The notes below the pieces were generated by a model, which was not told the origin of the DNA, searched no databases, and saw only the letters and a list, made by a program, of their open reading frames with translations. DNA of 32,000 nt, taken from the NCBI GenBank assembly GCA_942493105.1, contig OW818668.1:1710001-1742000 (forward strand). The letters are read 5' to 3'. Shown here one piece after another: positions 22,645-32,000 of this stretch; the stretch's first letter is position 1; each line of letters starts with the position of its first letter. The position numbers were made by a program, and so were the translations under genes. Source of the stretch: an uncultured Erysipelotrichaceae bacterium (GTDB taxonomy: Bacteria; Bacillota_I; Bacilli_A; Erysipelotrichales; Erysipelotrichaceae).

Positions 22645-24171
22645 CTATTTTCTTAACAATGATCCAAAGATACCACGAGCAATTTCACGTCCTATAGACG
22701 AACTCATCGTTCCAACGAAAGACTTGGCCATTTTTTCAACCACAGTTACATTTTTCTTAGCGGTTCTTGCCTTTTCTTTATCAAGTTTCTCTTGTTCTTT
22801 ACGTAAACGTTCAGCTTCTTTATTTTGTTCTTTGACTTGTTTTTCATGAAGCTTAGCTTCTTCTACTAAACTTTTTTGCTCTTGTTGGGCATTCATTTTA
22901 GCTTTCAACAACTCATATGCCGATTCTTTATCAACGATTTGATTGTACTTGTAATAGAAAGGAGAATTTGTGATCAGTTCTTGACGTTTTTCAGGTGTAA
23001 TGGTTCCAATGATGCTGTGTGGGGGCAAAATCATAGCTCTCTCAACAACACCTGGTCTGCCTTCAGAATCCAGCATAGAAACCAAAGCTTCACCGGTTTT
23101 AAGTTCAGTGATGACACTAGGGATATCGATACTTGGGTTTTGTCTAAACGTTTCTGCCATCGCATTGATGGCTTTATTTTCTCGCGGTGTAAATGAACGC
23201 AGAGCGTGTTGGACACGATTACCCAATTGATTCAAAACTTTGTCTGGTATATCTATTGGATTTTGTGTTACAAAGTAAACACCTACGCCTTTAGATCTAA
23301 TCAATCTAACCACGAGTTCTATCTTATCTAGTAATGCTTTAGGAGCATCTGTGAAAAGCAAATGTGCTTCATCAAAGAAGAAGACCATTTTAGGTTTATC
23401 AAGATCTCCGACTTCTGGTAATTCTTCAAACAATTCAGAAAGCAACCACAATAGGAAGGTTGAATATAAAGCGGGTGCCATCATGAGTTTTTCTGAAGCC
23501 AAGACATTGATGATACCTTTACCATAAGGATCTACTTTCATTAAATCGTTGATGTCGAAAGCAGGTTCCGCAAAGAACTGATCTCCACCTTGATCTTCTA
23601 AGGTCAATAAAGCACGTTGAATTGAACCTACAGAAGGTTTAGCTAAATTTCCATATTCAGTTGTAAAATTATTCGCATTGTCTCCAACATACTGAACTAG
23701 ACTGCGAATATCTTTCAAATCGATTAAAAGCAAACCCATATCATCCGCAATCCTAAATATTATGGTCAATACCCCTGCCTGAACCTCATTAAGACCTAAG
23801 ATACGACTTAAAAGCAAAGGTCCGATCTCTGAGATGCTGGTCCGTAAAGGATGTCCCAACTCTCCAAAAACGTCCCATAAACGAACAGGATAGCTTCCGA
23901 ATTCAAAGGGTGCAAGATTTAATTTATCAATTCTTTCTTGAAGTTTAGGATTAATAATGCCTGGTTGAGCTAAAGAGGCAAGATCACCTTTTACATCAGA
24001 TAAGAAAACAGGAACACCTTGAGTGCTGAAATGTTCAGCCAACACTTTTAAGGTTATTGTTTTACCTGTCCCTGTAGCCCCAGCGATCAAACCATGTCGA
24101 TTGGCCATTTTTAAGTTAAAAAGTATATCCTTTTCGCCTCTTCCAACTAGAAATTGTGTTGATTGATCCAT
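22645..24171 (-). CDS. DUF853 / YjgR-type HerA-like P-loop ATPase
   Basis: The preferred start is MDQSTQFLVGRG (ATG 24169-24171, AGGAGGA RBS 5 nt upstream) rather than the track start 24198. Walker A is GATGTGKT and Walker B is VFFFDEAH. A Lys/Glu-rich coiled-coil tail ends in GIFGSLLRK, as in YjgR homologues. Confidence 0.8.
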   Translation of the reverse strand: MDQSTQFLVGRGEKDILFNLKMANRHGLIAGATGTGKTITLKVLAEHFSTQGVPVFLSDVKGDLASLAQPGIINPKLQERIDKLNLAPFEFGSYPVRLWDVFGELGHPLRTSISEIGPLLLSRILGLNEVQAGVLTIIFRIADDMGLLLIDLKDIRSLVQYVGDNANNFTTEYGNLAKPSVGSIQRALLTLEDQGGDQFFAEPAFDINDLMKVDPYGKGIINVLASEKLMMAPALYSTFLLWLLSELFEELPEVGDLDKPKMVFFFDEAHLLFTDAPKALLDKIELVVRLIRSKGVGVYFVTQNPIDIPDKVLNQLGNRVQHALRSFTPRENKAINAMAETFRQNPSIDIPSVITELKTGEALVSMLDSEGRPGVVERAMILPPHSIIGTITPEKRQELITNSPFYYKYNQIVDKESAYELLKAKMNAQQEQKSLVEEAKLHEKQVKEQNKEAERLRKEQEKLDKEKARTAKKNVTVVEKMAKSFVGTMSSSIGREIARGIFGSLLRK

Positions 24172-24307
24172 AAACTTCCTCCTGATCTCATTTCTCATAT
24201 TATAGTTCAGTGGTGCTTATAATACAAGAAACCACACTTTAATATTTGGACTTATGCTTAGTCAAGATGATACAATTAAACAAGATTTGAAGGGGTAAAG
24301 AATAAAC

Positions 24308-24829
24308 ATGAAAAAACAGTGGGCTTTTATTATAGCAATCATATTCTTAAGTGGCTGTCAATTCTCTAAGAAACCAAGTTTTAGTGCAGAATCCATCAAA
24401 ATCAATTCTTCCATTGAACAAATATCAGTCACTTTGAGCCGTTGTACAGATGGTGATACAGCTCATTTTATGATGGATGGAGATGATGTGAAAGTACGAT
24501 TCTTGTCGATAGATGCCCCTGAAATCGCCAATGATGATCATCCTAACCCTGAACCCTATGGAAACCAGGCACGTGATTATACCTGTAACCTACTGACCAA
24601 CGCAAAAACCATTACCATTCAAATGGATCCCTATGAAGATGATCACGATCAATATGATCGCCTATTGGCATGGATCTGGGTCGATGGACAACTTCTGCAA
24701 GCCAAATTGATTCAACAAGGCTATGCAGAAGTAAAGTATGTCAAACAGCCCAATCTTTATTCTAGTCAACTTTATCAGCTTCAAGATCTAATGAAAAATG
24801 AAAAAATAGGCATCTGGAAAAATAACTAG
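24308..24829 (+). CDS. lipoprotein thermonuclease (staphylococcal-nuclease fold)
   Basis: 173 aa. The signal peptide has the lipobox LSGC. SNase motifs CTDGDTAHF, VRFLSIDAPE and YDRLLAWIWVDG are present. Confidence 0.85.
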   Translation: MKKQWAFIIAIIFLSGCQFSKKPSFSAESIKINSSIEQISVTLSRCTDGDTAHFMMDGDDVKVRFLSIDAPEIANDDHPNPEPYGNQARDYTCNLLTNAKTITIQMDPYEDDHDQYDRLLAWIWVDGQLLQAKLIQQGYAEVKYVKQPNLYSSQLYQLQDLMKNEKIGIWKNN

Positions 24830-24864: not shown

Positions 24865-25182
24865 TTAATAATCAAATTCGAGATCTAATAAAGGGGCGTG
24901 TTGTTGAGCACCATAAACATCGGTTTCACGGATATCTCCACTGCACATCGGTCTGATGATGGTGGCTTTTATGGCATTAGCAGGAACAAATTCAACGATG
25001 GTAATAACATCTTCAACTTTGATTTTATACAAAGATGCTATGAGTTCAGCGTTGATGCATTTGTGTTTGACTAAGGCATCAAAGGTTGCTTTGTCTTTTA
25101 GGATAATGTCAAAGGTGATCTCGTATGGTCCTGAATTCTTAGAACGGATGACTTTGGCGATATCGATCAGTTTATGTTTCAT
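24865..25182 (-). CDS. DUF4387-like small protein (C-terminal module of AtuA-type proteins)
   Basis: The preferred start is MKHKLIDIAKVIRSKNSGPYEITFDIIL (ATG 25180-25182, AAGGAG 6 nt upstream), giving 105 aa. The track start 25245 would overlap the upstream gene by 53 nt. Family assignment is from memory of the DUF1446/DUF4387 gene pairing and is not verified. Confidence 0.6.
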   Translation of the reverse strand: MKHKLIDIAKVIRSKNSGPYEITFDIILKDKATFDALVKHKCINAELIASLYKIKVEDVITIVEFVPANAIKATIIRPMCSGDIRETDVYGAQQHAPLLDLEFDY

Positions 25183-25192
25183 GAGTGGCTCC

Positions 25193-26545
25193 TTACACAT
25201 TGACCATGGTTTGTTTGAATATACCCACTGGATCTGTGATTTCAATCAAATGATACAGACTAAAATTATAAACAGCTCCTACTTTAAAATCGCTTGGTGA
25301 ATATGGAAAGGCAAGATTGCCTGCTGTTGCGATACGTCCTTCATAGCCATAATGAAGCATCGTACTTCTGGCAAAACTACAAATTGTGTTTGCCACATCT
25401 TGTGTTTTCGCGACCGCATCGATCACCACACAGAGCTCATGAGATTTGATGTCTTTGACAGGTTCAAGATCTCCCATGACCCCATTCTTCCCATAGATTT
25501 TGAAGTTGAGGTGATAGTTATCGAGATTCTTGAAGTTATCTTTGACTCTTTTTGTGACCCCATCTAGAATCGAATCAATTTCTTTGATGAAGATCGGATC
25601 ACGAACCCCAGCGATACTCACAGTTCTAAATCCAACGCATTTGGCAGCTTCTAGTTTGATCGTATAAGGATTTGCCGGAATGAATTTGCTTCCTCTTACT
25701 TCAACTTGATTTTCGTTGAGTTGAGTAAAAGTAGTTTGATGAAGATCGATGGTTCCGCCTGGTCCTGGCAAGATATAAGGATTTGTCTTTTCGTATAAAG
25801 TATGGGCACTGACACTCAAAGTCGTACATTTGCGAGCTGGATTTAAGGTTTCTAAGACAAAACGATCTTCATAGATGGTTCCAAACATACAATCACTTCC
25901 ACTGCCTGGTGCTGAAGCAATGGCTGCACATTCAAGTATTTTACCCATATGCAGTGCCAGACCTTGATCAAAACCACGAATGATCGGTAAAGCTGCAAAC
26001 ATATTGGGATCATAAGAGCGTCCCGCAATAATGACCTGAGCACCATCATTCAGAGCCTTTATGAAAGGCTCAACTCCCATTTGACCCACAATATGAGTCG
26101 ATTCTAAAATGTCTTCTCTGGTACATTCTGGGGCTGGATGAAGGGGTTTGACTTTGCCTTCTTCAAAAGCTTTTAAGACATATTCTTTATCGAAATCAGC
26201 CTCGATCACAGCCATTTTAAAGTGCAGATGATGTTCCTTAGCGATTTCATATACGATCTGAAGTTGCCAATCCAGATGAGGTTTGGCTCCGCTTCCTCCG
26301 GCACTGCCTACTAATACTGGAATATTATGTTCGATCCCGGCTTCAATCATGATGGCCAAGTCGCGTTTCACGGCGAAATAATCGGTAAAAGAAACACCTG
26401 CTCCTAAATAATAAGGCCCTGGATCCGTAGAACCAGCATCTACTGCGATACAGTCCGGTTTCAGTTTCATCCCTTCTTCAAAACTGGACATTGGGAAACC
26501 ATAACCTAAGATCGCTGTCGTAGAAAGAACTTTAACGCATTTCAT
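25193..26545 (-). CDS. DUF1446 / AtuA-family protein (acyclic-terpene-utilisation AtuA N-terminal module), function unknown
   Basis: 450 aa. VLSTTAILGYGFP...AVDAGSTDPGPYYLG...VGSAGGSG resembles DUF1446 as I recall it. The start overlaps the mal stop by 14 nt. Confidence 0.65.
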   Translation of the reverse strand: MKCVKVLSTTAILGYGFPMSSFEEGMKLKPDCIAVDAGSTDPGPYYLGAGVSFTDYFAVKRDLAIMIEAGIEHNIPVLVGSAGGSGAKPHLDWQLQIVYEIAKEHHLHFKMAVIEADFDKEYVLKAFEEGKVKPLHPAPECTREDILESTHIVGQMGVEPFIKALNDGAQVIIAGRSYDPNMFAALPIIRGFDQGLALHMGKILECAAIASAPGSGSDCMFGTIYEDRFVLETLNPARKCTTLSVSAHTLYEKTNPYILPGPGGTIDLHQTTFTQLNENQVEVRGSKFIPANPYTIKLEAAKCVGFRTVSIAGVRDPIFIKEIDSILDGVTKRVKDNFKNLDNYHLNFKIYGKNGVMGDLEPVKDIKSHELCVVIDAVAKTQDVANTICSFARSTMLHYGYEGRIATAGNLAFPYSPSDFKVGAVYNFSLYHLIEITDPVGIFKQTMVNV

Positions 26546-27797
26546 GAGTTGTCTTGCCTTTCATCGCTTGATTAAGCGCGATTATTCTTTGCATTTCATT
26601 GTAGACGATCATATACCCTTCATCGACTCCCATGCCTGGTTTTGCCAAGATCTGTACGGGATGTGTAGCCATTGCGATATGGACGCAGGTCTTGGCGCTG
26701 ATGTCTGTTTCATTACAGGTACCGCCTTGATATGCTCCAATACCTTTCTGATTACAATAAAGCACTGCTTCGATCGTATTTTGAATTCCGCCTAAATCAG
26801 GCGTCTTGATTTGAACCATATGACCTGCTTTGTTGTCAGCGAAATAGATGATGTCTTCCAACGTATTGCACCATTCATCAGCTACGATTTCTACATCGAT
26901 GTGACGTCGATCAAGCACTTCAGTGATGGCTTTAAGACCCAGCATGGTCAACTCACGATCGTCAAAATCGACAGGTCCTTCAATTCGCAAATGATAAGGA
27001 CCACTGGCTTCACGCAACAACTTCATATAATCAGCCATGGCTTCATAATCGGTTTTAAAGATGATCCCAAAAGTACCATAAACATCGATATGAAATACAG
27101 GCATATAGTCCTCTTGGCTCTTAAAAGTATCGACTCGATGACGCAACCATTTGACATATTCTAAGAGTTTTTCACCTTGATAACCTAATTTAGCAGCCAC
27201 ATTATTGATGAGTGCATGCGGCATGACAGCTGATCCTTTGATGATCATTTTATCGACATTGTCATAACGATTATCACCACTTTGACTAAAGATCGGAATC
27301 AGTTTGTCACTAACTTGAGTACCGTATTCTAAGGCAACGATATTGGCCATTTGGGTATGGTGTGCTTTTGCGACCGCATCTAGTAAAGCTTGGGTGATCC
27401 CATAACGTAAGGCTGTATGAATTCTTTTGCCTTCATGATGATAGTTATCAAATTCATGTGCTAATGTTTTAAAAGATTTAAGCTCTCTGCCTAAGAGTAA
27501 AGGTTTAAGCTCTTGTTGAACGATGAGTTCAAATTCTTGAGCTAAGAAGAGAGGATCTCTTCCTCCGCAGCCGCTGTATTGAACGGCACAGCAATCTCCA
27601 TAAGCAACTTGACCATCCTCAAGAACCAACATGATGGTTAAAGATTCCCCTGCTTGACGGATGCGGGTGAAGCCTGGCGTGATGGGGTCTCCCACATAGA
27701 AATTGCCTTCTGATTTAGCGCCTTGTTTAATCGCTTTTTGATCATCAAAGAAGAAACCGGTTCTGCCTTGACTTGTGACTACATCGATTATTTTCAT
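26532..27797 (-). CDS. mal: 3-methylaspartate ammonia-lyase (methylaspartase)
   Basis: The conserved N-terminus is MKIIDVVTSQGRTGFFFDDQKAI (ATG 27795-27797). VLEDGQVAYGDCCAVQYSGCGGRDPLF, RYDNVDKMIIK, HLRIEGP, VQIKTPDLGG and GGTCNET are near-identical blocks to Clostridium tetanomorphum MAL as I remember it. Confidence 0.95.
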   Translation of the reverse strand: MKIIDVVTSQGRTGFFFDDQKAIKQGAKSEGNFYVGDPITPGFTRIRQAGESLTIMLVLEDGQVAYGDCCAVQYSGCGGRDPLFLAQEFELIVQQELKPLLLGRELKSFKTLAHEFDNYHHEGKRIHTALRYGITQALLDAVAKAHHTQMANIVALEYGTQVSDKLIPIFSQSGDNRYDNVDKMIIKGSAVMPHALINNVAAKLGYQGEKLLEYVKWLRHRVDTFKSQEDYMPVFHIDVYGTFGIIFKTDYEAMADYMKLLREASGPYHLRIEGPVDFDDRELTMLGLKAITEVLDRRHIDVEIVADEWCNTLEDIIYFADNKAGHMVQIKTPDLGGIQNTIEAVLYCNQKGIGAYQGGTCNETDISAKTCVHIAMATHPVQILAKPGMGVDEGYMIVYNEMQRIIALNQAMKGKTTHEMR

Positions 27798-27804
27798 AGT
27801 GTCC

Positions 27805-29250
27805 CTATCTTGGTCGTCCGACCAATTGTCCTTTACTGACCGCATAAATATCATCAATTACCATTTGGAAACTGACATCACGGCGTTCTGTTTCTGCCCG
27901 TTCTTTTAGTTTCTGACGATGAAATGCTTTTAGTGTTTCATCAAAAGGTAAGTTCCCAAAGTCAAGGAATCTTACAGCCCCATGATTGTCTCTGGCCGGT
28001 AATGCCTTGTTGGCATTACATTGTGCCGGAGCAAACGGAACATCGATCAGACCAGCCTCAAATCCACGCAAAGCACTTAATCCAAAATCATTGTTTCCAA
28101 GTTTCAAGACAGCTTCCATGATACAACGGGTTTCAGCTTCAATGATTTTCATTTCTTCTAAAATCATCGGACTTTCAATAGCCACTTGATCTTTAAGCAT
28201 GGCCGTCAATTGTTTGGTGGCTTTTAAACCATTAGAATTGGCTTCTGCGGTAGGTACTCCAAAGGCTTCATGAGGAGATTTAACGATGACTTTTGTGGCA
28301 CCAGCCAGAACGGCTGTTGCGGCACCCCAAGCAATAACGGCATAAGCCTTAGCTTCATCTTGAGGAAAGCCTCCCATCCATTGATGAAAGACCGTTGTAA
28401 TACGGACATCTGTATATCCAAAACGATCTAGATAGGCTTTGGTTAGCTTTTCGAGGGTCTTTATGGCTGCGATATCCTGAATTTGATTCCCACATTGGCC
28501 ATACCCAACTGTAATGCATTTACAGCCCTGTTGAGCTGCCAACAATGCTTCTAAGATCGCAACTGAATGAGAAATACATGGGGGAACTAACGTTCCTGTC
28601 AAAGGCCCAAAGGGTTCACGATTGATTCTGATGCCTTGTTCTTCGTAATAACCGACCAAGCGATCAACATATTGCCAATCTGTGATGGTCTTTTCAAGTG
28701 AATTGTTTTTACCATAAGGAATATTATAAGAAATCCCTCCACCTTCAAAGGATGTAAACCCACCAGCCAAAGTGATTTCAGCTAAAAGTCTGGCATCGGG
28801 TGTTCCATGACGAACCTGAACCGGAACATCCAAATATTCTACGACATCTCTACAAACAGAAACGCCATGATTGACAGCCGGAAAGCCATTGAGTAAGGAC
28901 TTTCCGATTCGGATACTTTCATCAATACCTGTTTGAGCTTCAACATAACGATTATGCCGCGTATAACTATCGATGGTCGTCGGCAAAAGATCAGCCCCAC
29001 CTTCATCTTGAAGCGTTTTCAGAAGTTTCTTGAGTTCATTAGGTAAGGCAACTCCAGCTCTTGGTTGAACCAAAGTAACCTTATCTTCAACTGCTTGACT
29101 TAAACGAGCACTAAACCTTTTTTCAGCTTTGATTGTTTTTTGATAAGCAACCGCTTCTTCAAGATTCACTTCTTTGCCTGTGATCCATTGATTGAGTACT
29201 TCTTGACGCAAAGCCAAGAAGGTTTCTAATGGCATCTTTTGATTGATCAT
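27805..29250 (-). CDS. glmE: glutamate mutase epsilon (catalytic) subunit
   Basis: 481 aa. [62 protein letters not shown] and [23 protein letters not shown] match clostridial GlmE/MutE. ATGA overlap with glmL. Confidence 0.95.
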
Positions 29251-30602
29251 ACGATTTTCTCCATGTTTCTTTTAAGTAAGCGAACCACAGTATCAGGATG
29301 GCGCGATGCCAACAAACCTAAACAACTGACCACATAGTGAGCATCAAGAACATATTCCAGTTTATTTGGACATAAAATCTCGGGATGTTCCGTTTTAGAT
29401 AAGGCATTCTTTAAGATTGACAAAGGATCCTGTGAATGTATTAATGGACCACCGATCCCAATCATGATTAGCACATCACGCAAGTCTTTTCCGGATTGAT
29501 AATAACTGACTCCCATTGGAGAATACGACGTCTCTAACCGTCCTGCATGTCTTTGTGTGGCAATATCCGTACACCAACTGGCTAAAATGGTATCTTTATC
29601 AGGATCAATGTCACAGTGGATATTGTCTTGAATCTGTTGAAGATAATCTCTCATTTCTTGATCACATTCAGGTTCATCTTTTTTTAAATCAGCAACATTA
29701 TGCGCACTGAATCGAACGCCTAGATCCCCTTCTACACTGCGTTTATCCAAAGGTTCCCTAAGACCTTTATATCCGACATTGTCTTTCAAAACAAAATGAG
29801 CATTCATACTATAGACATCCGTGGTTGCTCCACCAATATCAATGGCCATTAAATCGCCTATTCCAGGTTCATTAACTGTCCCTTTTGAAAGTAACTTTAG
29901 GGCTTCCATAACACTCATAGGGGTAGGCAAGACGATGTCATCGATGACAGAACTTAATTCAGATAAACCTTTTGCCTTAACGATGGTTTTAAGGAATAAT
30001 TCACGGATCAATTCACGACATTGATCCACCTGTAAGATCCCATACGTCGGCATCACATTTTCACACATGAGATAATCAATTTTAGCATTCTTAAAGATGG
30101 CAGCTATTTCATCTTGACACGACTTGTTTCCGGCATAAATCACTGGAAAGTTTGGAGATAAGGTCGCAATCATTTTAGCGTTATGAATCACCACATCAGA
30201 ATTGCCGCCATCTGTACCACCGCAAAGTAATAATATGTCACACTGAGCATTTTCAAGTTCTTTGAGTTCACGTTGATTCAGTTCAAATGAATATGAACCG
30301 ATAACTTTAGCACCAGCACTATAACACGCCAAAGTCGCAGCTTTTAGGGTCAAATCAGGCACCAAACCAATCGCAATCATCTTCAATCCACCTTTAGCTG
30401 AACTGCAAACTAAGGTTTGATCAATAGAAACATTATCTAAGATGTTCGCCATTTTATGTTTGACCCGTTCAAGTCCTATGGCGATATCTGTTGTTGCCGT
30501 TGTCAGATCACTGGCACTGGCTAATATTTCGTCACTTTGGGTATCAACAATACAACCTTTGGTATATGTCGATCCCACATCAAATAAAAGATAGGTCGGC
30601 AT
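29247..30602 (-). CDS. glmL: glutamate mutase accessory protein GlmL/MutL (ASKHA-fold putative reactivase/chaperone)
   Basis: 451 aa. The N-terminus [12 protein letters not shown] (phosphate-1 motif) and [11 protein letters not shown] (phosphate-2 motif) are present. Its position between glmS and glmE matches clostridia. Confidence 0.85.
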
Positions 30603-31019
30603 TTAGGCAGTGATCCCCAAATCATGTTTCAGATCTTCAATACCCTGATTGATGTCACTTCCAGGTGGATATACCCGATTAAATCCCATTGCAATATATT
30701 TCTCTTCTACAGGTTTAAAATCAGATTTGCCTATGACTAAATTACCGCCAACATACAATAAAACATCAGATAACCCAGCTTCTTTACAATAGTCACCAAA
30801 ACCTCGACAATCCAATTCTCCTTGTCCATATAAACTGGATACAAAAATAGCTCTCGCATTGGTTTCGATTGCAGCATCTACAAACTCCTTTTGTGAAACC
30901 ATGACACCTAAATTGACCACATTGAATCCAGCATGATCAAGTGCAAATTCAATGATACGATTTCCTACAGCATGGACATCGGCTCCAATGACCCCGATTA
31001 CAACCGTTACTTTTTCCAT
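30603..31019 (-). CDS. glmS: glutamate mutase sigma (B12-binding) subunit
   Basis: 138 aa. The base-off/His-on cobalamin motif DxHxxG (ADVHAVGN) is present, along with [15 protein letters not shown] and GFNRVYPPG. The match to C. tetanomorphum MutS is close. Confidence 0.95.
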
Positions 31020-31028
31020 GAACGCTCC

Positions 31029-31949
31029 TTAATCACCAAAGTGATTGATTTTATGAATATCTTGAATTGCATCTGATGAAACCATGCCTACCAACTCAAA
31101 ACATTGCTTCTGTGGATCAAAAACAAAATCATCCAAGAGATGGAAATTTTCAATTTGTTTGGTGGAATTCACATGAGTTCGAGGGCCAGTACAGTATTGG
31201 ATGATTTCACTTCCAATTTTGATATGTGTTGGATCCAAATAGCTGATGATCAAGTCTTGCTGAATAAGTGATTTGACTTTCTTTTCCAGGACACCTAAAG
31301 AAACTCTCGGTTTTTTATTGAAAGATAAGATGAATCCATGTTTAACATCCCCATGTCCATCACATAAAACTTGATACTCACTCTCTAAGATATGAACCAA
31401 TAAATCCTCAGCACTGTGAGCCATCCTCCGATATAACAACGATTTATACACCGTATTTTTGATGTCTGAAGGTTCAGGTCCAAATAAATTGGGTCGGGCT
31501 ACGATCACTTCTTCTCCTATCCCAATTAAAATATCTCCATTAATTCCCAGTTGTTCATAAACAGAATCAAAATGTTCGACGATCACACGTCTTTTTTCAC
31601 TCAATGCAGCCTTGATTGCATCGATCAACTCATAAGCTTGAGAGAAAGCCAATTCAAATCTCAAATCGATATGATAAGTATGCGCAATGAATTTGTGTTT
31701 TGAATGATCACGCATCAAAGGTGCAGGTCGTGTATTGATTCCATCATCATCGTTGGTCAATTCAAGACCGGGAAACATCCCTTTGATTAAAAGTGACTTG
31801 CCGCTTCCTGCATCGCCGATGATGCCGATCAATTTATCGGTCGGCAACAGATACATCTGTGAGATTTGATTCCCTAGATTTTGCATACGCTGACTTCCTC
31901 TAGGGGCAAAAAAGGTGGCATATCTTAATTGTTCAATACTTGGGCTCAT
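31029..31949 (-). CDS. uncharacterised P-loop NTPase with tRNA_SAD-like C-terminal half
   Basis: 306 aa. AAGGAG RBS (31958-31963) lies 8 nt upstream. Walker A is GIIGDAGSGKS (31794-31817) and a candidate Walker B is RRVIVEHFD. The C-terminal half contains AHSAEDLL and YCTGPRTHV (31170-31196), reminiscent of the HxxxH and CxGxH zinc motifs of the ThrRS/AlaRS second additional domain. It ends 9 nt upstream of glmS. Confidence 0.6.
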   Translation of the reverse strand: MSPSIEQLRYATFFAPRGSQRMQNLGNQISQMYLLPTDKLIGIIGDAGSGKSLLIKGMFPGLELTNDDDGINTRPAPLMRDHSKHKFIAHTYHIDLRFELAFSQAYELIDAIKAALSEKRRVIVEHFDSVYEQLGINGDILIGIGEEVIVARPNLFGPEPSDIKNTVYKSLLYRRMAHSAEDLLVHILESEYQVLCDGHGDVKHGFILSFNKKPRVSLGVLEKKVKSLIQQDLIISYLDPTHIKIGSEIIQYCTGPRTHVNSTKQIENFHLLDDFVFDPQKQCFELVGMVSSDAIQDIHKINHFGD

Positions 31950-32000
31950 GGATTAAACTCCTTAAGTTGATTTAGATAACGAAAAAACAAGAATGTTCTT

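Follow-up and report, generated by a model that had tools for sequence, protein, structure and literature searches.

A TsaE-like and AlaX-like two-domain protein of methylaspartate gene clusters in Bacillota: a candidate accessory factor of glutamate mutase

In the genome of an uncultured Erysipelotrichaceae bacterium (GenBank assembly GCA_942493105.1, contig OW818668.1), we analyzed a stretch of 32,000 nucleotides (nt; contig positions 1,710,001 to 1,742,000; hereafter the window), in which the glutamate mutase gene glmS is directly preceded by an open reading frame (ORF) for a protein of 306 amino acids (aa), at 31029..31949 on the minus strand. This ORF and its product, called gene X and protein X here, represent a family of their own, which is held in databases under a domain-derived name and whose combination of domains and genomic context are new. 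Protein X joins a TsaE/YjeE-like P-loop ATPase domain to a domain with the fold of AlaX and the editing domains of aminoacyl-tRNA synthetases, and its relatives are strongly tied to the genes of the methylaspartate pathway. From fold and context, we tentatively predict X to be a switch ATPase, gated by a ligand or a metal, through which the glutamate mutase/methylaspartase module is maintained or controlled; we do not think that it is a canonical tRNA-editing enzyme. An earlier reading of the window, made without database searches (the sequence-only reading), had proposed a P-loop NTPase fused to a diverged tRNA_SAD-like fold, and this proposal stands on Foldseek matches for both halves, sub-threshold Pfam matches and a collinear hhalign alignment.

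The two domains of protein X

The ORF listing of the window gives ATG as the start codon of gene X. The gene and the features of its product are listed below, with positions in the window.

31029..31949, minus strand: gene X, encoding the 306-aa two-domain protein (ORF listing)
31958-31963, minus strand: ribosome-binding site AAGGAG of gene X, 8 nt 5' of the ATG (raw sequence)
31479..31949, minus strand: TsaE/YjeE-like P-loop ATPase domain, residues 1-157 (Foldseek, Pfam, hhalign)
31794..31817, minus strand: Walker A motif GDAGSGKS, residues 45-52, with G45, G48, G50, K51 and S52 invariant in 81/81 family members
31689..31778, minus strand: family-specific stretch GMFPGLELTNDDDGINxRPxPL, approximately residues 57-87, partly invariant and predicted to be disordered
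31653..31676, minus strand: YHIDLRFE, residues 92-99, matched by eye to TsaE YHFDLYRL with its Walker-B-like Asp
31569..31586, minus strand: VIVEHF, residues 122-127, matched by eye to TsaE CLVEWP; the candidate Walker B of the sequence-only reading
31032..31478, minus strand: AlaX/ThrRS-editing-like domain (tRNA_SAD superfamily), residues 158-306 (Foldseek, Pfam, hhalign)
31404..31421, minus strand: AHSAED, residues 177-182, equivalent of HxxxH, now H178-x-x-E181-D182
31173..31193, minus strand: CTGPRTH, residues 253-259, equivalent of CxxxH, in which a 2-residue insertion brings in R257

The sequence-only reading had described a 306-aa ORF with a strong ribosome-binding site that ends 9 nt before glmS, and had named four motifs in its product; all of this is exact, the motifs being GIIGDAGSGKS at residues 42-52, RRVIVEHFD at 120-128, AHSAEDLL at 177-184 and YCTGPRTHV at 252-260. 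The 9 nt between the stop codon of gene X and the glmS ATG at 31019 lie within the junction TAAGGAGCGTTCATG (window 31017-31031), where the glmS ribosome-binding site, AAGGAG, shares nucleotides with the TAA stop. Both genes share one reading frame, with starts 930 nt apart; genes coupled in translation are typically arranged in this way, and the shared frame together with the overlap of stop codon and Shine-Dalgarno sequence suggests such coupling of X and GlmS. The window stops 51 nt 5' of the gene X ATG, and the promoter region was read in relatives only. There, the description of X as operon-leading proved to be right only in part: X does stand directly before glmS, but in the closest relatives mesA, mesB and a malic-enzyme gene precede X on the same strand, with ~175 nt, containing a terminator-like hairpin, between the malic-enzyme gene and X.

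An AlphaFold2 model of protein X, built from a 30-sequence alignment, was confident, with a predicted local distance difference test score (pLDDT) of 81 and a predicted template modeling score (pTM) of 0.73, and only residues 1-7, 65-75, 80-87 and 300-306 were poorly predicted. When compared with the Protein Data Bank (PDB) by Foldseek, the model gave 22 matches at E <= 1e-3, which consisted of TsaE/YjeE proteins and editing domains, with no third group. The tRNA_SAD-like fold of the sequence-only reading was therefore recovered, whereas its kinase-type P-loop was not, TsaE/YjeE structures being found instead.

The TsaE/YjeE group covered the N-terminal half and consisted of 1htw, 1fl9, 6n9a_E, 6nak, 6s84_E and 5mvr (YdiB), with E-values of 1e-5 to 3e-4 for 1htw, 1fl9, 6n9a_E and 5mvr. 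Profile matches were sub-threshold: Pfam TsaE (PF02367) matched residues 20-133 at E 5.5e-4 (20.3 bits vs a cut-off of 26.6) and TIGR00150 (TsaE) matched at E 4e-4 (20.2 bits vs a cut-off of 60.1), while hhalign aligned the family profile to E. coli TsaE at E 1.2e-4 over the Walker A region only. YHIDLRFE and VIVEHF are by-eye matches that lie within the Pfam TsaE range (20-133) and outside the hhalign alignment. H93, D95, R97 and E99 of the former are invariant among the 81 family members, as are E125 and H126 of the latter; the P-loop Lys is 42 residues from YHIDLRFE vs 37 in E. coli TsaE, and D95 and E125 are 30 residues apart vs 28 for D80 and E108 of that protein. To judge from these motifs, the TsaE-type nucleotide site of X is apparently intact. 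In the family-specific stretch that follows the Walker A motif, residues 65-75 and 80-87 have pLDDT < 50, and we infer that residues 57-87 form a partner- or substrate-binding loop.

Two other P-loop identities were considered and dropped. The sequence-only reading had likened the P-loop to that of uridine kinase and phosphoribulokinase (PRK), but no PRK-type family was found among Pfam/NCBIfam matches at E <= 1, nor any such protein among the 22 Foldseek matches, and the fold is that of TsaE/YjeE. The same reading had excluded a MeaB-type G3E GTPase since NKxD is lacking, and rightly so: the sequence contains no NK.D, and no G3E/ArgK profile matched at E <= 1. There is also the option that X is a housekeeping TsaE, or a decaying paralogue of it, with editing motifs that arose by coincidence, in line with the many members called 'TsaE' by JGI pipelines. 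We consider this effectively refuted, as the 20.2 bits fall far under the equivalog cut-off of 60.1, a further 150 residues form a domain whose AlaX-like fold is confident, the residues at almost every checked site are the same in 81/81 members, and the gene resides in glm clusters; neither tsaB nor tsaD was noticed near X in the 80 loci described below, in which no query was aimed at them.

In the C-terminal half, the Foldseek matches were AlaRS (2zze/2zzg), AlaX-M (9iuw/2e1b), 3kew, AlaX-S (1wnu/1v7o/1v4p) and ThrRS (1qf6/1tje), together with two designed proteins of the same fold (3rfn and 3rhu). E-values were 1e-5 to 8e-4 for 2zze, 9iuw, 2e1b, 1wnu, 1v7o and 1tje, and the Foldseek probability was 1.00 for these six and for 3kew, showing that the editing-core fold is present. 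Fold comparison was needed here, since the link to editing domains is not proven by sequence alone: Pfam tRNA_SAD (PF07973) matched residues 243-272 at E 0.02 (15.3 bits vs a gathering threshold of 24), hhalign matched ThrRS N2 over 125 columns at E 0.0044, and HMMER searches of PDB sequences with the whole family and with C-terminal parts returned P-loop noise and chance matches, with AlaX 1v4p at E 1.1.

Using E. coli thrS, alaS and tsaE as comparison sequences, we found the HMMER and hhalign alignments with ThrRS and AlaRS to be weak but fully collinear. They pair H178 with ThrRS H73 and AlaRS H564, D182 with ThrRS H77 (the second His of HxxxH), C253 with ThrRS C182, H259 with ThrRS H186, and GF205-206 with the GF of GFYYD. 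The second His of the first motif is thus an Asp, as the sequence-only reading had stated; its Cys-His spacing, by contrast, had been put at one residue longer, and the alignments show two (CTGPRTH, i.e., Cx5H, vs CRGPH in ThrRS and CGGTH in AlaRS). Neither canonical HxxxH nor CxxxH is present, and the replacements, HxxxD and Cx5H, are fixed or nearly so across the family; R174, one helical turn before AHSAED, is invariant along with H178, E181 and D182 (81/81). 'Degenerate', the earlier term for these motifs, does not fit residues that are altered yet fixed across 81 members rather than decaying, and the earlier worry that the resemblance might be fortuitous has lost its ground, the motif residues being identical in 81/81 members (80/81 for H259) and the fold being matched.

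By hhalign, a 23-residue ThrRS segment containing K156 has no counterpart in X, and AlaRS residues 627-656 (~30) are likewise unmatched in the weaker HMMER alignment. ThrRS K156 touches the 3' end of the tRNA and is required for editing. The predicted editing-fold pocket of X contains a His/Asp(Glu)/Cys/His set that is invariant or nearly so, plus two gained invariant arginines, R174 and R257. One of the Foldseek matches, 1wnu, is AlaX in complex with L-serine, so the fold can hold a free amino acid.

The family and its genomic context

A word-indexed search yielded 3726 homologues of X. When 1.84 billion representative proteins were searched exhaustively with a profile, there were 329 matches, nearly all of them fragments of the same family, and neither distant relatives nor informative fusions were found; a 577-aa protein (P0215) is apparently a chimeric gene call. 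Judged by these comparisons, family X is compact and highly conserved, and no distant relatives of it can be detected. Across a 30-sequence sample from several Bacillota lineages, mean column identity was 59%, and Erysipelotrichia members share 51-57% identity with those of other Bacillota (Clostridia, Negativicutes), compared to 35-45% for GlmL. The window protein is 93% identical to its nearest family member and has full-length similarity, the family motifs GMFPGLEL, AHxAED and CTGPRxH, and a location in a methylaspartate cluster. All 81 members share approximately 30 charged or polar residues, including R17, R21, D38, K51, S52, E63, D67, D68, R74, H93 and D95 in the N-terminal part and, further on, R97, E99, R121, E125, H126, R174, H178, E181, D182, H199, D201, H242, C253 and R257; H259 is kept in 80/81. 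Members are mildly acidic, with isoelectric points (pI) of 5.5-6.8.

Automatic names for the family are inconsistent ('alanine-tRNA synthetase second additional domain-containing protein' at NCBI, 'TsaE', 'lantibiotic ABC transporter' and 'GTPase SAR1'). All named sources are Bacillota except for three contigs of metagenome-assembled genomes labeled Bacteroides or Patescibacteria, labels that we suspect to be binning errors. Among the 120 of ~3700 matches listed in a homologue search from a Clostridium member, none of the named ones came from C. tetani, C. tetanomorphum or C. cochlearium. Our literature search retrieved no paper on family X, and in the literature and databases searched we found no function for it and no earlier-noted link to glutamate fermentation; a survey of methylaspartate gene clusters leaves X unnamed (PMC4682846). 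The most divergent members, P0126 and P0138, are second copies directly 3' of a canonical X (L084 3-1144; L085 and L086 2-1600), and in P0138 the counterparts of H178, E181, C253 and H259 are lost and GKS is retained. The sequences of such copies hint at action of X as a dimer, one partner of which is degenerate in those genomes.

A scan of one genome per species found > 521 relatives of X, and the best 80 loci (L numbers) were inspected up to 10 kb to each side. At least one methylaspartate-pathway gene lay within 10 kb of X in 66/80 loci, so that the linkage to glm genes seen in the window holds strongly in other genomes. The genes identified around X were glm, mal, mes, cit, DUF1446 or rph, and a pattern search of the 80 loci for AlaRS, ThrRS and AlaX genes found none. 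Four arrangements were seen.

Arrangement i, Erysipelotrichales (the type of the window) and L023: mesA-mesB-malic enzyme, gap, X-glmS-glmL-glmE-mal-DUF1446-DUF4387
Arrangement ii, many Clostridia: glmS-L-E-mal-DUF1446-DUF4387-X
Arrangement iii, Negativicutes and others: glmS-L-E-mal-X-citC-(malic enzyme)-mesA-mesB
Arrangement iv, Oscillospiraceae and Lachnospiraceae: citD-E-F-mesA-mesB-gntR-glmS-L-E-mal on one strand, with a divergent citC-X-citXG operon

Fully covered clusters have glmS, glmE and mal in common, and glmL in all but L058. X stands directly before glmS in Erysipelotrichales and L023 and directly before a glmL homologue in L024. In about a dozen loci it is flanked by citC and citXG, and in arrangement iv its ORF overlaps that of citXG by 10-38 nt. 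Citramalate-lyase genes (citC, citXG or citDEF) occurred in 26/80 loci and DUF1446/DUF4387 in 30/80, with both in 0. Since X occurs in clusters of both types, it is not lyase-specific, and a role as regulator or partner of citramalate-lyase activation (CitC/CitXG), which the citC-X-citXG operons had brought to mind, is weakened by the 30 X clusters without a cit gene. In 19 of the 30 DUF-type loci, mostly of the Clostridia type, there was no mesaconase gene within 10 kb either; in those organisms, DUF1446 and DUF4387 together may stand in for citramalate lyase or for the entire downstream branch.

The other context involves rph. In 14/80 loci (L043 9983-12897, L070 9980-11718 and 12 similar; the named ones Desulfosporosinus/Desulfotomaculum), X is directly upstream of RNase PH and RdgB/Ham1 in the order (OMT-HGSNAT-)X-rph-rdgB, with no glm gene within 10 kb; in L043, three tRNA genes follow. 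Since rph-rdgB also flanks complete glm clusters (L021, L054, L066), the X-rph adjacency looks like a remnant of synteny, and the 14 rph-type copies keep all invariant residues except D239 (Asn in 6/14). We had also considered that X, orphaned from glm in Desulfosporosinus, is independent of the pathway; this was not sustained, given the flanking of glm clusters by rph-rdgB and a report of glutamate mutase in a Desulfosporosinus genome (PMC10378866).

Some further genes recur in these loci. A malic-enzyme-like gene (392 aa; L001 8647-9825; also L002, L010-L014, L062, L072 and L079), labeled SfcA in the published survey (PMC4682846), separates mesB from X in Erysipelotrichaceae and citC from mesA in Negativicutes. 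In Petroclostridium (L016 12372-14285), a gene 1.5 kb downstream of X encodes a sigma-54 activator whose sensor domain is PrpR_N, whereas a GntR regulator lies within the Oscillospiraceae-type cluster L029 and a GntR-like ORF upstream of glmS in L058; regulation of the pathway seems to differ among lineages.

Possible roles of protein X

Glutamate mutase and the methylaspartate pathway are textbook B12 radical enzymology. Recombinant GlmS and GlmE are active in vitro without other proteins, the role of the accessory protein GlmL is only inferred, and P-loop NTPase chaperones (MeaB/MMAA) and reactivases of the acetate and sugar kinase/Hsc70/actin (ASKHA) superfamily are common for adenosylcobalamin (AdoCbl)-dependent mutases. 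TsaE itself binds the ASKHA-fold pair TsaB-TsaD and spends ATP to reset its partner TsaD in the TsaBD complex.

Against this background, our tentative proposal is that X assists, as a dedicated accessory factor, the first half of the methylaspartate pathway, i.e., GlmS/GlmE/GlmL and methylaspartate ammonia-lyase. The editing-like domain would no longer handle tRNA and would have been repurposed to bind a small anionic ligand or a metal. Candidates, which are a guess, are 3-methylaspartate, glutamate, or a metal or corrinoid at the Cys/His site; the two amino acids are suggested because AlaX binds a free amino acid (1wnu), and R174 and R257 would suit a dicarboxylic amino acid. By analogy with TsaE on TsaB-TsaD, the TsaE-like domain would use ATP to switch a protein partner, and occupancy of the pocket would be linked to its nucleotide state. 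For this partner, GlmL would be the most obvious candidate, as the X operon itself encodes this ASKHA protein; the subunits of glutamate mutase would be the other plausible choice. Such a Bacillota-specific helper, dispensable for catalysis itself, could keep the mutase loaded or active or tune its activity to the level of a metabolite.

Several observations weigh against this proposal. X was found outside the methylaspartate or rph-type context in 0/80 loci, in a sample in which other B12 aminomutase clusters were not searched directly; it therefore seems not to accompany the GlmL-like proteins of such clusters and is probably not a general partner of the GlmL family. Further, the Oscillospiraceae and Lachnospiraceae genes lie in the citC-X-citXG operon on the strand opposite to the glm genes, L058 carries X with no glmL in its cluster, and the 14 rph-rdgB loci have no glm gene within 10 kb. 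Finally, a published gene-cluster legend for E. coli O157:H7 has no X-like gene, which makes the function of X dispensable.

An alternative that retains the ancestral chemistry is a trans-editing factor, in which the AlaX-like domain hydrolyzes the 3-methylaspartyl ester on mischarged tRNA-Asp or tRNA-Thr. At millimolar concentrations, 3-methylaspartate could pose a mischarging risk, as it resembles aspartate and, with the hydroxyl swapped for a carboxylate, threonine; to judge from its cluster location, X would be co-expressed with the enzymes that make this non-proteinogenic amino acid, and R174 and R257 could hold the extra carboxylate. Every characterized member of the fold superfamily (AlaX, AlaRS editing, ThrRS N2) is, to our knowledge, an aminoacyl-tRNA deacylase, and both domains of X descend from families of tRNA metabolism (TsaE, AlaX). 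X also lies beside RNase PH in 14 loci, with tRNA genes nearby in L043, but this adjacency is the apparent synteny relic seen in L021, L054 and L066. Moreover, the segment with ThrRS K156 and the matching AlaRS region are deleted in X, HxxxH and CxxxH are both altered, the family is mildly acidic (pI 5.5-6.8), a strictly conserved ATPase would be left without a role, and the E. coli O157:H7 cluster legend has no X-like gene. We consider trans-editing decidedly improbable.

A regulatory role is unlikely too, if somewhat less so. X could be an amino-acid-sensing regulator or protein kinase, whose pocket senses glutamate or 3-methylaspartate and whose TsaE-like domain phosphorylates or allosterically switches a pathway enzyme (GlmS/E, MAL, CitC). 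Protein kinase activity has been reported for the TsaE homologues YdiB/UbK, and B. subtilis YdiB (5mvr) is among the structural matches, as is AlaX with bound free serine (1wnu); however, the kinase activity of TsaE-family proteins is itself disputed. The citC-X-citXG order seen in about a dozen loci would fit, as would the regulation of Clostridium sphenoides citrate lyase ligase by phosphorylation and L-glutamate, but the 30 X clusters without any cit gene imply that CitC is not a universal target. A lineage-restricted distribution is typical of regulators, while 51-57% conservation and approximately 30 invariant charged or polar residues are more enzyme-like than sensor-like.

Conservation at the level of an enzyme would suit a new ATP-dependent small-molecule enzyme, in which the P-loop and the His/Asp/Cys/His/Arg pocket form one composite site that phosphorylates, ligates or epimerizes a pathway metabolite, for example in repair of erythro-3-methylaspartate or a mis-made 3-methylaspartyl derivative. 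The pTM of 0.73 suggests that the model holds both domains in a fixed arrangement, invariant arginines flank the pocket, and X is present in clusters whichever downstream branch they contain. Nevertheless, the textbook pathway has no missing ATP-dependent step and we know of no TsaE-type P-loop that acts as a small-molecule kinase, and of the roles discussed so far in this section we give this one the least credence.

Returning to a helper of the mutase, a more novel form of the idea, which we regard as possible but doubtful, is that X represents a class, not recognized before, of B12-mutase helper or metabolite proofreader assembled from two modules of the tRNA machinery, a TsaE-type ATPase gated by an AlaX-derived pocket. 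The pocket would read 3-methylaspartate or glutamate, or hold a corrinoid or metal, and ATP would be spent on preserving glutamate mutase activity in vivo or on removing mis-activated 3-methylaspartyl species. If this were true, it would be the first assigned function for a TsaE paralogue outside synthesis of N6-threonylcarbamoyladenosine (t6A) and for an editing-fold domain outside aminoacyl-tRNA hydrolysis.

In many Bacillota, gene X is a second candidate accessory gene of methylaspartate clusters, better conserved than glmL, and its product is a testable candidate for a missing helper in the in vivo maintenance of glutamate mutase. It exemplifies how folds of the tRNA machinery (TsaE, AlaX) are redeployed in catabolism, and its description corrects the misleading automatic names 'TsaE', 'lantibiotic ABC transporter' and 'alanine-tRNA synthetase domain protein'. 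Should X raise activity in vivo, its co-expression would be worthwhile in synthetic pathways that use glutamate mutase.

The window operon and comparison with known systems

Downstream of gene X, the operon continues on the same strand, with glmS, glmL, glmE and mal scoring far over the curated cut-offs of their Pfam/NCBIfam profiles.

30603..31019, minus strand: glmS, B12-binding subunit of glutamate mutase (NF002612, E 9e-63)
29247..30602, minus strand: glmL (mutL), ASKHA-type accessory protein (NF040745, E 1.4e-162)
27805..29250, minus strand: glmE, catalytic subunit of glutamate mutase (TIGR01503, E 2e-220)
26532..27857, minus strand: mal, methylaspartate ammonia-lyase (TIGR01502, E 8e-172)
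25193-26545, minus strand: DUF1446 (AtuA-like) gene (PF07287)
24865-25245, minus strand: DUF4387 gene, the last of the operon (PF14330)
31982..32000, minus strand: part of a terminator-like leader hairpin, namely its 3' arm and T-run; the end of the window cuts the 5' arm, and the stem covaries among 7 Erysipelotrichaceae sequences

The operon is bounded downstream by a convergent staphylococcal-nuclease (SNase)-like gene, which occupies 22645-24829 together with a HerA-like helicase/ATPase gene (517 aa; PF05872, E 5e-215); these are unrelated to the finding on gene X. Upstream, a hairpin and T-run lie 20-40 nt 5' of the X ATG in 7/7 Erysipelotrichaceae sequences, namely the window, L001 (9946-9975) and, at the same place, L002, L010, L011, L012 and L014. 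The stems vary yet stay complementary (ACAAGAA/TTCTTGT, AACAAGAT/ATCTTGTT, AAATGATGC/GCATCATTT), and in L001 a promoter-like TTGACC-17-CATAAT lies 5' of the hairpin. An Rfam scan of the window and five loci found no riboswitch, T-box or cobalamin element near X, and the hairpin matched no family; it may be a leader attenuator of the glm operon or a leaky terminator behind the malic-enzyme gene.

Among characterized proteins, the N-terminal domain of X is closest in fold to TsaE/YjeE (Foldseek E 1e-5), which provides the ATPase of the t6A-synthesizing TsaBDE complex and is represented by HI0065, E. coli b4168 and B. subtilis YdiB. Like TsaE, X has the Walker A motif GxxGxGK[ST] and, by eye, counterparts of YHxDLYR (YHIDLRFE) and VEWP (VEHF). 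Unlike TsaE, it scores under the Pfam/NCBIfam cut-offs and carries an extra C-terminal domain, and an invariant, acidic loop (57-87) with GMFPGLELTNDDDG...RPxP, predicted to be disordered, takes the place of the TsaE sequence that links Walker A to YHxDL and includes the switch region for partner contact. The genomic partners identified for X are glm, mal and cit, those of TsaE being tsaB, tsaD or rimI; tsaB and tsaD were not noticed near X in loci in which no query was aimed at them.

The C-terminal domain shares its core fold with AlaX-S/M, AlaRS editing and ThrRS N2 domains (Foldseek E 1e-5 to 8e-4), including the order of elements (first-motif helix, GF strand, helix, Cys-Gly-x-His-Val strand), and keeps their first His, their Cys and their last His. 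It differs in having HxxxD after an invariant Glu, Cx5H with an inserted invariant Arg, and ~23-30 fewer residues, including the ThrRS K156 segment, and in being fused to an ATPase in a catabolic operon.

Functionally, X may be compared with MeaB/MMAA and the G-domain of IcmF, as a P-loop NTPase encoded beside an AdoCbl-dependent mutase, but since X has no NKxD or G3E match and belongs to another P-loop lineage, this is a possible analogy only and not homology. The ASKHA reactivases GlmL/MutL, DdrA and EutA provide a further comparison, GlmL being the other accessory gene of the X operon and presumed to be ATP-dependent. GlmL is unrelated to X in fold and is present in published enterobacterial methylaspartate clusters, whereas X is essentially confined to Bacillota.

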